Assembly (NCBI RefSeq): GCF_016903815.1
Contig: NZ_CP069973.1
Length of the DNA stretch: 64,000 bases
DNA from: Escherichia coli
GTDB taxonomy: Bacteria; Pseudomonadota; Gammaproteobacteria; Enterobacterales; Enterobacteriaceae
Direction: 5' to 3' (one strand)
Below, piece after piece: positions 43,058 through 61,810 of the stretch; position 1 is the first letter of the stretch; every line of letters begins with the position of its first letter. Below the pieces are notes generated by a model. The model made no database searches. It saw only the letters and a program-made list of their open reading frames with translations, and was not told where the DNA came from. Both the position numbers and the translations under genes were made by a program.

Positions 43058-43080
43058 AGGTCCGCTTGCGGGCCTTTTTT
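43058..43080 (+). terminator. Rho-independent terminator of the acpP-fabF transcript
   Basis: aggtccgc-ttg-cgggcct hairpin followed by TTTTTT, 25 bp after the fabF stop. Confidence 0.7.
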
Positions 43081-43081
43081 C

Positions 43082-43794
43082 TTGTGCACAGAAAACCCCC
43101 AGCTAGGCTGGGGGTTCCGGAAAGCTTTCAGCTTTAAGCCAGTTATTAAAACCCCTTTTGATTTGTTAAAACACCTTGCGGTCTGGCAACTGCAAGTGTC
43201 AAACAAGAAATCAAAAGGGGGTCCCAATGGGGAACGAAAAGAGCTTAGCGCACACCCGATGGAACTGTAAATATCACATAGTTTTTGCGCCAAAATACCG
43301 AAGACAGGTGTTCTACAGAGAGAAGCGTAGAGCAATAGGCAGTATTTTGAGAAAGCTGTGTGAGTGGAAAAGTGTACGGATTCTGGAAGCTGAATGCTGT
43401 GCAGATCATATCCATATGCTTGTGGAGATCCCGCCCAAAATGAGCGTATCCGGCTTTATGGGATATCTGAAAGGGAAAAGCAGTCTGATGCTTTACGAGC
43501 AGTTTGGTGATTTGAAATTCAAATACAGGAACAGGGAGTTCTGGTGCAGAGGGTACTACGTCGATACGGTGGGTAAGAACACGGCGAAGATACAGGATTA
43601 CATAAAGCACCAGCTTGAAGAGGATAAAATGGGAGAGCAGTTATCGATTCCCTATCCGGGCAGCCCGTTTACGGGCCGTAAGTAACGAAGTTGGATGCAA
43701 ATGTCAGATCGTGTGCGCCTGTTAGGGCGCGGCTGGTAAGAGAGCCTTATAGGCGCATTTGAAAAACCTCCGGCTATGCCGGAGGATATTTATT
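43082..43794 (+). mobile_element. IS200 (IS200/IS605 family) insertion sequence, copy 1
   Basis: About 713 bp that is apparently identical to 59980..60692 (ORF-track translations identical on both strands); encodes an HuH Y1 transposase; left-end hairpin cccccag-ctagg-ctggggg (43096..43114) and right-end hairpin cctccggc-tat-gccggagg; boundaries set by where the two copies diverge, plus or minus a few bp. Confidence 0.9.
43227..43685 (+). CDS. tnpA: IS200 transposase TnpA (HuH Y1 family)
   Basis: 152-aa protein MGNEKSLAHTRWNCKYHIVFAPKYRR...ADHIHMLVEIP...; HxH motif and Tyr-containing C-terminal region; closely matches Salmonella IS200 TnpA from memory. Confidence 0.9.
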   Translation: MGNEKSLAHTRWNCKYHIVFAPKYRRQVFYREKRRAIGSILRKLCEWKSVRILEAECCADHIHMLVEIPPKMSVSGFMGYLKGKSSLMLYEQFGDLKFKYRNREFWCRGYYVDTVGKNTAKIQDYIKHQLEEDKMGEQLSIPYPGSPFTGRK

Positions 43795-59653: not shown

Positions 59654-59911
59654 ATGAAAAACGTAAAAACCCTCATCGCTGCGGCGATTTTAAGCTCCAT
59701 GTCATTTGCCAGCTTTGCGGCTGTCGAAGTTCAGTCAACGCCAGAAGGCCAACAAAAAGTCGGTACTATCAGTGCTAACGCGGGGACAAATCTGGGATCG
59801 CTGGAAGAGCAGCTGGCGCAAAAAGCGGATGAGATGGGCGCAAAATCATTCCGTATTACTTCTGTAACCGGTCCAAATACCCTCCATGGAACAGCAGTAA
59901 TTTATAAATAA
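59654..59911 (+). CDS. bhsA: Multiple stress resistance protein BhsA (YcfR)
   Basis: 85-aa secreted protein with signal peptide MKNVKTLIAAAILSSMSFASFA. Confidence 0.9.
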   Translation: MKNVKTLIAAAILSSMSFASFAAVEVQSTPEGQQKVGTISANAGTNLGSLEEQLAQKADEMGAKSFRITSVTGPNTLHGTAVIYK

Positions 59912-59950
59912 GCATTAACCCTCATTAATGCCTGCTACTGCTGATTTTTT

Positions 59951-59979
59951 CCCCGCGACATGCCGTGTCGCGGGGATTT
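59951..59979. terminator. Terminator hairpin downstream of bhsA (ancestrally shared with convergent ldtC)
   Basis: ccccgcgaca-tgccg-tgtcgcgggg 10-bp stem, flanked by TTTTTT upstream and ATTTT downstream. Confidence 0.7.
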
Positions 59980-60692
59980 TTGTGCACAGAAAACCCCCAG
60001 CTAGGCTGGGGGTTCCGGAAAGCTTTCAGCTTTAAGCCAGTTATTAAAACCCCTTTTGATTTGTTAAAACACCTTGCGGTCTGGCAACTGCAAGTGTCAA
60101 ACAAGAAATCAAAAGGGGGTCCCAATGGGGAACGAAAAGAGCTTAGCGCACACCCGATGGAACTGTAAATATCACATAGTTTTTGCGCCAAAATACCGAA
60201 GACAGGTGTTCTACAGAGAGAAGCGTAGAGCAATAGGCAGTATTTTGAGAAAGCTGTGTGAGTGGAAAAGTGTACGGATTCTGGAAGCTGAATGCTGTGC
60301 AGATCATATCCATATGCTTGTGGAGATCCCGCCCAAAATGAGCGTATCCGGCTTTATGGGATATCTGAAAGGGAAAAGCAGTCTGATGCTTTACGAGCAG
60401 TTTGGTGATTTGAAATTCAAATACAGGAACAGGGAGTTCTGGTGCAGAGGGTACTACGTCGATACGGTGGGTAAGAACACGGCGAAGATACAGGATTACA
60501 TAAAGCACCAGCTTGAAGAGGATAAAATGGGAGAGCAGTTATCGATTCCCTATCCGGGCAGCCCGTTTACGGGCCGTAAGTAACGAAGTTGGATGCAAAT
60601 GTCAGATCGTGTGCGCCTGTTAGGGCGCGGCTGGTAAGAGAGCCTTATAGGCGCATTTGAAAAACCTCCGGCTATGCCGGAGGATATTTATT
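59980..60692 (+). mobile_element. IS200 (IS200/IS605 family) insertion sequence, copy 2
   Basis: Apparently identical to copy 1, offset 16,898 bp, same orientation; left end abuts the bhsA terminator T-tract and right end lies 12 bp from the ldtC stop. Confidence 0.9.
60125..60583 (+). CDS. tnpA: IS200 transposase TnpA (HuH Y1 family), copy 2
   Basis: Protein identical to the copy 1 TnpA. Confidence 0.9.
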   Translation: MGNEKSLAHTRWNCKYHIVFAPKYRRQVFYREKRRAIGSILRKLCEWKSVRILEAECCADHIHMLVEIPPKMSVSGFMGYLKGKSSLMLYEQFGDLKFKYRNREFWCRGYYVDTVGKNTAKIQDYIKHQLEEDKMGEQLSIPYPGSPFTGRK

Positions 60693-60704
60693 TTTATCCA
60701 GGAT

Positions 60705-61667
60705 TTACAGAGTTTGTGGGCTCACTTGATGACGGCGGACATCCACCGGCATCCCGGAACGGACATCCATCACATGTTGCATCACTTCAGCGTCAGTTTG
60801 TGCTGCATCTTTAAATGATTGCATTGCGCTATTCAGCGTAATTGGCAGCAGCTGCGGATCGTCATCAATCTTCTCTGACAGCGGCTGATGTACTTCAACC
60901 AGACGCGCACCGTTTGGTTCGGCAGAGACTTTTATCGGAGTGTTGATGATATTCACTTTGGTGCCTGGGGTGACCTGGCTAAAGAGTGTTTTGATATCGT
61001 CATCCCGCAGACGAATACAGCCAGAACTTACCCGCATGCCAATGCCGAAATCGGCGTTCGTACCATGAAGCAAATAAACGCCGCCATAGGCCGCCAGACG
61101 AATCGCATGATGGCCCATTGGGTTATCCGGTCCAGCCGGCACTACCGCAGGCAACTCAATTCCCTGTGCTTTATAACGGGCGCGGATGTTTGCCGTTGGC
61201 GTCCAGGTTGGGTTTGCTCGTTTGTCTGAAACGGTGGTCACCATTGTCGGTGTCAGCGTGTCACCACCCAACTGACCAATACCTATTGGATACACGGTTA
61301 CCGAATTTTTACCCGGCGGGTAGTAATAGAGACGCAGCTCCGCAATATTGATCACAATGCCTTCGCGCGGCGCATCTGGAAGTAGGGTTTGCAACGGGAT
61401 CGTTAACACGCTGCCCGCGCGCGGTACGTAAGGATCAACGCCGGGGTTAGCCTGTAACAGAGCGAGAAAGCCGACGTTATATTTTTTGGCGATGGCTTCC
61501 AGAGAACCACCGTCATTTTCCACCACATGAAATTTGTTTTCGCCAACCAGACGACTGCCCGCTGGCGGCAGCGGCCAGGTGTTGGCTTTTGCCGGTAGCG
61601 CCAGCGCCACGGCAGCGGCGAACGTAAAAAACGTTAGCCAGCGAGAAAAACGCGTTTTGATCATCAC
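60705..61667 (-). CDS. ldtC: L,D-transpeptidase LdtC (YcfS)
   Basis: 320-aa protein from a GTG start (MIKTRFSRWLTFF…) with YkuD catalytic motif context (HGTN…SSGCIRL). Confidence 0.92.
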   Translation of the reverse strand: MMIKTRFSRWLTFFTFAAAVALALPAKANTWPLPPAGSRLVGENKFHVVENDGGSLEAIAKKYNVGFLALLQANPGVDPYVPRAGSVLTIPLQTLLPDAPREGIVINIAELRLYYYPPGKNSVTVYPIGIGQLGGDTLTPTMVTTVSDKRANPTWTPTANIRARYKAQGIELPAVVPAGPDNPMGHHAIRLAAYGGVYLLHGTNADFGIGMRVSSGCIRLRDDDIKTLFSQVTPGTKVNIINTPIKVSAEPNGARLVEVHQPLSEKIDDDPQLLPITLNSAMQSFKDAAQTDAEVMQHVMDVRSGMPVDVRRHQVSPQTL

Positions 61668-61810
61668 CAAAAATCCATAATAAATATAAGGTTATTGTAA
61701 TAAACAGATAAGCCTGAATTATGGATGGTGACAGTGTCGGATAGTGCAGGGAAGTGCAAAGAATTTGTAAATGTTGCAGATGGGGGCGCAGAAACGCCCC
61801 CGATTTACCA

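Follow-up and report, generated by a model that had tools for sequence, protein, structure and literature searches.

The IS200C right-end hairpin as a predicted inward-facing terminator downstream of ldtC in Escherichia coli

Introduction

In the IS200/IS605 family, the transposase TnpA is described as binding subterminal hairpins on the top strand, and the cleavage site as pairing with a short guide sequence that lies just 5′ of each hairpin foot. The closest described example of such a hairpin acting on transcription is found at the left end (LE) of IS200, where the hairpin at nt 12–34 is reported to be a bidirectional rho-independent terminator that stops ~85% of impinging transcripts (Beuzon et al., 1999, as cited in Ellis et al., 2015, PMC4513863, and 2017, PMC5435999). 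That a transposition hairpin carried by an IS can also block transcription is already known from the IS200 LE, and the ldtC case described here would be a further instance. A text from the Haniford laboratory calls the native IS200 tnpA terminator “weaker,” a statement that concerns the direction opposite to ldtC. Our searches on IS200 or IS1541 together with terminators or Term-seq returned no test of the right end (RE) as a terminator, and the literature searched contained no 3′-end mapping for ldtC or for the right end of any IS200.

Bacterial class C group II introns, which are retroelements with RNA–DNA recognition, insert just past intrinsic terminators. SEnd-seq work in E. coli has reportedly identified bidirectional terminators between convergent genes in which the hairpin is preceded by an A-rich tract and followed by a T-rich one, thereby providing a U-tract for both transcripts. 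For insertion sequences, a 2025–26 preprint described terminator-like sequences as statistically enriched upstream of ISs, with the strongest enrichment for IS200/IS605, and an older paper placed IS1541 between pheL and pheA in Yersinia, i.e., at an attenuator. Taken together, these two reports mean that a tendency toward terminators is at least partly known; the preprint excepted, no explicit description of terminator targeting was found in the literature searched.

Here, we analyzed a 64,000-nt stretch of E. coli DNA (hereafter, the window; assembly GCF_016903815.1, contig NZ_CP069973.1), which was 100% identical to strain 7/2 (NZ_CP023820) across the stretch queried. A previous sequence-only reading had proposed that the convergent genes bhsA and ldtC ancestrally shared one terminator and that an inserted IS200 copy separated ldtC from it while supplying a replacement.

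Results

The gene order at the locus is comR(−), bhsA(+), the IS200C element, ldtC(−), and mfd(−). The bhsA ORF (59654–59911, + strand) matches the Pfam family YdgH_BhsA-like (2.6e-20) and is annotated in RefSeq as a multiple stress resistance protein in the identical strain 7/2, while the ldtC ORF (60705–61667, − strand; RefSeq coordinates), which carries Pfam YkuD, Ldt_C, and LysM domains, has its stop codon at 60705–60707. Between them lies IS200C copy 2 (59982–60692, + strand; 711 bp, with an IS200C tnpA in RefSeq), which is the same as copy 1 over this span and missing from the empty site. Its boundaries were set by aligning the two IS copies of the window with each other and with the empty site of strain PE15, and they carry a 2-nt TT ambiguity, such that 59980–60690 is equally possible. 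The element was inserted within the T-run behind the intrinsic terminator hairpin of bhsA and the sRNA BhsB (59950–59976, + strand; 12 pairs in the terminator scan; dG of about −24 kcal/mol and z of −4.7 on folding). No target duplication is present, since the host T8 (hairpin-T8-atccagg in the PE15 empty site) is simply split as T5, IS, and T3. According to the empty-site alignment, T5 (59977–59981, + strand) is the left remnant of the host T7/T8 tract and the pentanucleotide 5′ of the insertion point, and T3 (60693–60695, + strand) is the right remnant.

The copy and empty-site alignments agree with the sequence-only reading that the right end of the IS sits 12 bp past the ldtC stop (up to 14 bp with the TT ambiguity). 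The same reading had ldtC pushed ~713 bp away from the bhsA hairpin; the large separation stands (728 nt from stop to hairpin in the occupied site versus 17 nt in the empty site), with the increase corrected to 711 bp. Among 5,426 complete E. coli genomes, 91–95 carry the occupied site and the remainder are empty. Occupation of this site was also noted in lineages that differ from the window by ~2% in their flanks, one of which has T6 rather than T5 at the left junction; either independent insertions at a hot spot or transfer via recombination is suggested by this pattern. Weak Rfam matches to anti-hemB and NsiR1 (59872–59983) fell below their gathering scores and were discarded, as they simply match a shape that the bhsA hairpin has in common with terminators in general.

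The internal anatomy of copy 2 is that of the IS200 group. Behind the left terminus (GTGCACAG...), sequence and folding place the LE hairpin CCCCCAGC-TAG-GCTGGGGG at 59994–60012 (+ strand), preceded by AAAA (59990–59993). The STnc490 region, i.e., the tnpA 5′ UTR and locus of the antisense sRNA art200, spans 59992–60115 on the (+) strand (Rfam RF01405; 146 bits, gathering score 56, E-value of 4.7e-31); termination of art200 at the LE hairpin was considered and dropped. The tnpA ORF (60125–60583, + strand) encodes a Y1 (HUH) transposase of 152 aa that covers 119 of the 121 positions of the Pfam Y1_Tnp profile (3.8e-38), and it is the sole ORF of the 711-bp element, as expected for a group whose elements measure ~700 bp. 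The group features of a subterminal hairpin at each end, both on one strand, the STnc490 element, and absence of target duplication are likewise present, with the LE and RE hairpins resembling each other (CC...GG stems, 8 bp, and 3-nt loops). Direct reading showed no inverted-repeat relationship between the IS ends GTGCACAG... and ...ATATTTATT, and no inverted repeat of at least 100 nt, a threshold too long for short terminal repeats, was detected in the window. The GC skew of the window's plus strand is positive (+0.036), which indicates that this strand is the lagging-strand template; because the top strands of both IS copies lie on it, their placement is as expected for the family, whose members insert behind a particular tetra- or pentanucleotide (on its 3′ side) and in the orientation that puts the top strand on the lagging-strand template.

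At the other end of the element, the plus strand at 60660–60695 reads AAAAA CCTCCGGC TAT GCCGGAGG ATATTTATT TTT. It comprises (i) a GAAAAA motif at 60659–60664 (+ strand), located 5′ of the hairpin foot, which is guide-like on the top strand and corresponds to a terminator U5 tract in minus-strand RNA; (ii) the RE subterminal hairpin CCTCCGGC-TAT-GCCGGAGG at 60665–60683, a predicted TnpA-binding element on the top strand and the predicted ldtC terminator stem-loop on the minus strand; and (iii) the terminal 9-mer ATATTTATT at 60684–60692 (+ strand), which forms the IS end (consensus ...TTATT|) and is the commonest 9-mer behind the hairpin in relatives, followed there by unrelated flanks. Copy 1 has the identical RE hairpin within unrelated flanks, behind the fabF terminator and ahead of pabC.

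Relatives were collected by a TnpA scan of one genome per species, which yielded 80 loci with transposases 66–94% identical from Enterobacterales, Vibrio, and many Clostridia. The same RE architecture, ~80 nt past the tnpA stop, was found at 70 of the 80 loci: (G)AAAAA, CCNCCNGC, a 3-nt loop, GCNGGNGG, and ATATTTATT, after which the sequences become unrelated. These 70 relatives contain 19 different RE stem sequences, and RNAalifold, applied to 71 right ends with no pre-selection for hairpins, recovered the stem with 30–31 sequences changed on both sides at two pairs. The same alignment revealed a small second conserved hairpin upstream (GCCT-TAT-AGGC; 60642–60652, + strand), with three pairs at which 11–16 sequences had changed on both sides. 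GAAAAA precedes the RE hairpin in 36 of the 70 relatives, the corresponding sequence is A-rich in all of them, and an A-run motif, (G)AAAA(A), lies 5′ of both the LE and RE hairpins. Moreover, position −3 ahead of the hairpin and position +5 behind it form A:T in 44, G:C in 7, and C:G in 3 of 60 right ends, counts that ignore shared ancestry; this Watson-Crick covariation is supportive of a guide role of the IS608 type. The hairpin behind the ldtC stop is thus the IS200 RE transposition signal and belongs to the IS. By analogy with IS608 and ISDra2, TnpA would bind it, and the A-run would act as the guide. Since the minus-strand T5 is the complement of this conserved guide-like A-run, the terminator look is not peculiar to the present copy; the RE hairpin plus T-run is a built-in property across the group and no adaptation to ldtC.

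Read in the ldtC direction, the minus strand gives CCTCCGGC-ATA-GCCGGAGG followed by TTTTTCAAAT, with TTTTT at the stem foot, i.e., the G+C-rich stem-loop directly before a U-tract that is characteristic of intrinsic terminators. The terminator scan reported a 3-nt loop on a stem of 8 pairs, of which 7 are G-C, and the hairpin is both the minimum free energy and the centroid structure of the ldtC 3′ region (dG −14.8 to −15.5 kcal/mol). A generic scan returned 5 terminator-like sites in 3.5 kb versus 4.0 ± 2.1 in shuffled sequences, meaning that the pattern by itself is not beyond chance and that it is the conservation of the hairpin that sets the RE apart. We also computed a d'Aubenton-Carafa-type score, combined with ViennaRNA energies, which serves as a rough yardstick only. 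The RE scored +26.5 in the ldtC direction (T-score 3.75) and −7 in the tnpA direction, while the bhsA terminator scored +59.9 in the empty site and +35.3 in the occupied site. Among 66 relatives, a positive terminator score was obtained for 55 when the RE was read facing inward, compared with 11 when it was read in the tnpA direction. Two observations of the sequence-only reading are borne out by these data, namely, the minus-strand hairpin followed by TTTTT, on which sequence and scan agree, and the intrinsic-terminator anatomy in the ldtC direction (8-bp G+C-rich stem, 3-nt loop, U5, positive score). Its remark that ldtC read-through would be antisense to tnpA follows from the orientations.

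The reading that we favor, with moderate confidence, is that this cis element (hairpin plus guide-like A-run) doubles as an inward terminator and ends most ldtC transcripts. Judging from its anatomy and the analogy with the LE, most ldtC transcripts probably end ~7–9 nt past the RE stem, which is the usual distance and would place the 3′ end at approximately 60656–60658, with a 3′ UTR of roughly 47–49 nt. The stem begins 21 nt past the ldtC stop codon, a spacer at which a terminating ribosome should not block folding of the RE. The U-tract, however, is only 5 U long before it continues as CAAAUG; given this, the short stem, and the 3-nt loop, termination efficiency could be moderate. RNA antisense to the IS is C-rich and G-poor (C/G of 1.49, reaching 3.5 in one 78-nt window) and untranslated, which makes a Rho back-up plausible. 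No entries for ldtC/ycfS or bhsA/ycfR were found in the E. coli Term-seq supplementary tables searched (PMC7815308, PMC12207403, and PMC9023263).

The most serious competitor, which we nonetheless regard as rather unlikely, assigns little termination to the RE hairpin: Rho, or collision with RNA polymerase coming from bhsA/tnpA, would stop the ldtC RNA, and 3′ exonucleases would then trim it back to the hairpin, which would act as a stability element. The U-tract of just 5 nt and the C/G bias of the antisense-IS RNA fit such a scheme, as does the guide function, which fully explains why the A-run is conserved. In addition, the ancestral hairpin located 17 nt past the stop lacks a U-tract, so ldtC may normally rely on this mode. 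On the other hand, the stem is in line with the usual terminator rules in its energy and G+C content, as are the 5 contiguous U directly at its foot, and the very similar LE hairpin terminates efficiently both ways.

The ancestral hairpin was then considered in both directions. In the empty sites of PE15 and K-12, the plus strand reads T6-hairpin-T7/8, and the RNA made in the ldtC direction is A8-hairpin-A6. The hairpin folds equally well in both directions (approximately −24 kcal/mol), and a stable hairpin lies 17–21 nt past the ldtC stop in the occupied and empty states alike. In the ldtC direction, its tail is AAAAAAUCAGC, with no U in the first 6 nt and a T-score of 0.07, and a U-tract in both directions, the mark of a bidirectional terminator, is thus absent. 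The score in this direction is −40, which is no proof of inactivity, because the same yardstick also gives −40 to the LE hairpin in a direction in which it is experimentally ~85% efficient. By its sequence features, the bhsA hairpin is a one-directional bhsA/BhsB terminator and not a canonical shared one.

These features bear on the idea, carried by the sequence-only reading, that bhsA and ldtC ancestrally shared a bidirectional terminator whose ldtC half was exchanged like for like by the IS. We consider it improbable: in empty sites, the ldtC stop is indeed just 17 nt away from the hairpin, which folds as well in one direction as in the other, and hairpins with poor U-tracts can terminate (e.g., the IS200 LE in the top-strand direction), but the A8...A6 flanks, the T-score, and the negative score in the ldtC direction speak against it, as do the T-runs on both sides of the plus strand, which are not an A-run/T-run arrangement, and the absence of an ldtC 3′ end from the K-12 Term-seq tables searched. 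The word “replacement” fails for the same locus, as ldtC in the empty site has no U-tract terminator to replace. When the ldtC 3′ regions with and without the insertion are compared at the sequence level, a hairpin near the stop is common to both states and the U-tract exists only with the IS; the IS is thus predicted to add a U-tract terminator to ldtC, and “gain” is the better-fitting term. Finally, the proposal that the RE hairpin lies outside the IS, either as a native ldtC terminator of the host or as an inverted repeat arisen by chance, to which its nearness to the ldtC stop and the shuffled-sequence counts (5 versus 4.0 ± 2.1 sites) might lend credence, is refuted by its absence from empty sites, its identity in copy 1, and its conservation in ~70 elements of unrelated genomes.

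Both IS copies in the window sit in a T-run right behind a host terminator hairpin. We therefore surveyed the left junctions of all related loci with a recognizable left end and enough flank, using an RNAfold-based criterion with controls (a strict perfect-stem finder undercounted, with 23 of 61). Terminator-like junctions, defined as a hairpin plus T-run abutting the IS, were found at 53 of the 60 loci, and several of the 7 non-scoring junctions resemble terminators too. In comparison, terminator-like sequence was present in 25 of 1,800 random 45-mers, 422 of 2,572 T-run-matched positions, and 62 of 492 T-run-matched positions outside long ORFs. The 5-mer in the left flank was TTTTT, TTGTT, TTCTT, or TTATT at 40 of 61 loci as called and mostly T-rich at the others, which fits TTNTT; the IS itself terminates in TTATT. 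This terminator bias may owe something to the loss of harmful insertions by purifying selection as well as to possible target recognition. Mimicry of the RE (hairpin plus 9 nt) by the host terminator was set aside as speculation only, host tails measuring ~4–7 nt by eye versus the 9 nt of the RE.

Discussion

The proposed course of events at ldtC can be laid out as follows. TnpA, the Y1 transposase, would bind the 8-bp G+C-rich subterminal RE hairpin on the top strand, and GAAAAA would most likely serve as the guide by pairing with the cleavage site at the terminus, ...TTATT|. Because the top strand carries the A-run ahead of the hairpin, a bottom-strand transcript contains the hairpin followed by UUUUU, which amounts to a terminator pointing into the element. 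IS200 entered a target of its habitual kind, namely, the T-run behind the bhsA/BhsB hairpin, and thereby brought the RE to within 12 bp of the convergent ldtC stop. Transcripts of ldtC would then mostly stop at ~60656–60658, with residual read-through antisense to tnpA left to Rho.

The two ends of IS200 are alike in that each presents an A-run and a CC...GG stem of 8 bp that closes a 3-nt loop, a transposition hairpin that can double as a block to transcription from outside. They differ in that the LE is an experimentally established terminator and the RE a predicted one, and in what is blocked: the LE prevents sense entry toward tnpA, whereas the RE would prevent antisense entry and, at the present locus, end a neighboring host gene. 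IS608 and ISDra2, the models for the “peel and paste” mechanism of the family, share with IS200 the top-strand hairpins at both ends, a motif 5′ of the hairpin foot that is related to the cleavage site, the lack of inverted repeats and target duplication, insertion 3′ of a short sequence, and placement of the top strand on the lagging-strand template. IS200, in which guide pairing is deduced from covariation, combines an A-run guide with a T-rich target and terminus (TTNTT and TTATT, respectively), and it is this combination that makes the reverse reading terminator-like; in contrast, IS608 (TTAC) and ISDra2 (TTGAT) have no terminator-like reverse reading. The RE (AAAAA-hairpin-ATATTTATTTTT) also has the layout of the bidirectional terminators of convergent genes, which the native bhsA hairpin does not; unlike those terminators, it is supplied by a mobile element. 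Like class C group II introns, IS200 homes to a host hairpin plus T-run and does little harm to host genes, but it is a DNA transposon with a Y1 transposase.

A broader and more tentative reading, which we consider possible but doubtful, is that the IS200 group consists of “terminator squatters”: a hairpin plus T-run would be recognized in single-stranded DNA (ssDNA), insertion would occur in the T-run, and the hairpins at both ends would rebuild the insulation as a selected design. If so, candidates for the ssDNA would be the lagging-strand template and, where RNA polymerase pauses at the U-tract, the exposed non-template strand; the LE would back up the truncated host terminator, and the RE would provide an inward-facing terminator for the convergent gene. 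Insertion would then be near-neutral for host transcription, which would allow long persistence despite almost no transposition, and the ldtC case would be an instance of a general selected design and no accident. Judged from the sequence organization of the element, termination of ldtC transcripts by the RE is probably an ordinary side effect of how the element is built.

At ldtC itself, little changes: a stable 3′ hairpin is kept, a cleaner stop is probably gained, and tnpA would be shielded from antisense transcription. More generally, because the terminator look of the RE stems from the A-run guide plus hairpin, annotators and prediction programs will call a “terminator” at every IS200 right end. 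About 90% of the sampled IS200-group insertions, across phyla, lie in host terminator T-runs, which accounts for their frequent location between convergent or tandem genes and for their low polarity.

The insertion also touches the sRNA BhsB. In K-12 (1,169,303–1,169,402), the annotated 3′ end of BhsB is the last T of the T7 behind the bhsA hairpin, and the IS shortens the U-tail from U7–8 to U5-GUG. Shortened U-tails of 3′ UTR-derived sRNAs, such as the change of BhsB from U7–8 to U5, could matter for Hfq binding.

IS200-group elements lie mostly behind terminator-like host hairpins

Analysis of loci carrying related IS200-group elements (L003 to L082) revealed that 53 of 60 left junctions lie directly behind a host hairpin followed by a T-run, with the element always in the same orientation as the hairpin and T-run, in hosts belonging to both Proteobacteria and Firmicutes. 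The same arrangement was found at 1.4% of random positions and at 13 to 16% of T-run-matched positions. Targeting of T-runs by itself would not account for so strong an association with hairpins. The 5-mers flanking the left junctions have the consensus TTNTT; those of the two copies in the window are located at 43079–43083 (copy 1) and 59977–59981 (copy 2).

IS200C copy 1 (about 43084–43794) has the same sequence and strand as copy 2 and is inserted in the T-run behind the fabF terminator hairpin, immediately after GGTCCGCTTGCGGGCC TTTTTTCTT. Since this copy is positioned between the fabF terminator and pabC, its right end (RE) faces a co-directional downstream gene, and read-out from tnpA/RE would run toward pabC.

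Possible consequences of copy 2 for BhsB and ldtC transcripts

In the K-12 annotation (NC_000913.3, 1169303–1169402), the bhsA terminator (window 59950–59981) also forms the end of BhsB, a 3′-UTR-derived sRNA with RIL-seq and northern support that terminates at the final T of the T7 tract behind the hairpin. Copy 2 interrupts the BhsB U-tail, shortening it from U7–8 to U5, followed by GUGCACAG, and the terminator score, a rough yardstick, falls from 59.9 to 35.3. The shortened tail could make both termination and Hfq binding of BhsB weaker in the 91 to 95 genomes carrying the insertion. Such scoring proved unreliable for hairpins at the IS200 element ends: the left-end hairpin (59994–60012; tail TTCCGG in the top-strand direction) scored −40, i.e., a non-terminator by a simple hairpin and T-tract score, though ~85% termination has been reported for it in that direction (Beuzon et al. 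1999, as cited in PMC4513863 and PMC5435999).

Rho-dependent termination of any ldtC read-through is plausible, because the IS-antisense RNA (59982–60659, minus strand) is C-rich and G-poor, with a C/G ratio of 1.49 (maximum of 3.5 within 78 nt); by contrast, the antisense-bhsA RNA has a ratio of 0.94. The ldtC start is TTG at 61670 in a mechanical ORF list (321 aa) versus ATG at 61667 in RefSeq (320 aa), a trivial one-codon annotation difference.

The bhsA-ldtC site is also occupied in strains XJ5.2 and 2017.17.01CC, whose flanks diverge from the window by ~2% (129 to 140 differences in 6.9 kb), with merely 4 to 5 differences per 711 bases in the IS; the left junction in XJ5.2 is T6 versus T5 in the window. 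The site may be a hot spot for insertion; alternatively, the element could have inserted long ago and been precisely excised in other genomes, or it may have been transferred by recombination.

Covariation at the right end

In the window and at homologous positions of L003 to L082, the A-run preceding the RE hairpin on its 5′ side (60659–60664) covaries in a Watson-Crick manner with the terminal 9-mer (60684–60692). Specifically, position pair −3/+5 is A:T in 44 sequences, G:C in 7, and C:G in 3, covariation is weaker at −5/+8 and −6/+9, and GAAGAA variants of the A-run are accompanied by GTTACT or GTTCCT termini. This pattern looks like the guide/cleavage-site pairing of IS608; we found no description of such pairing for IS200 in the literature searched. 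The family also conserves a second small hairpin, GCCT-TAT-AGGC (60642–60652), which precedes the RE hairpin by ~12 nt, with compensatory GC-to-CG and CG-to-UA changes in 11 to 16 of 71 sequences.
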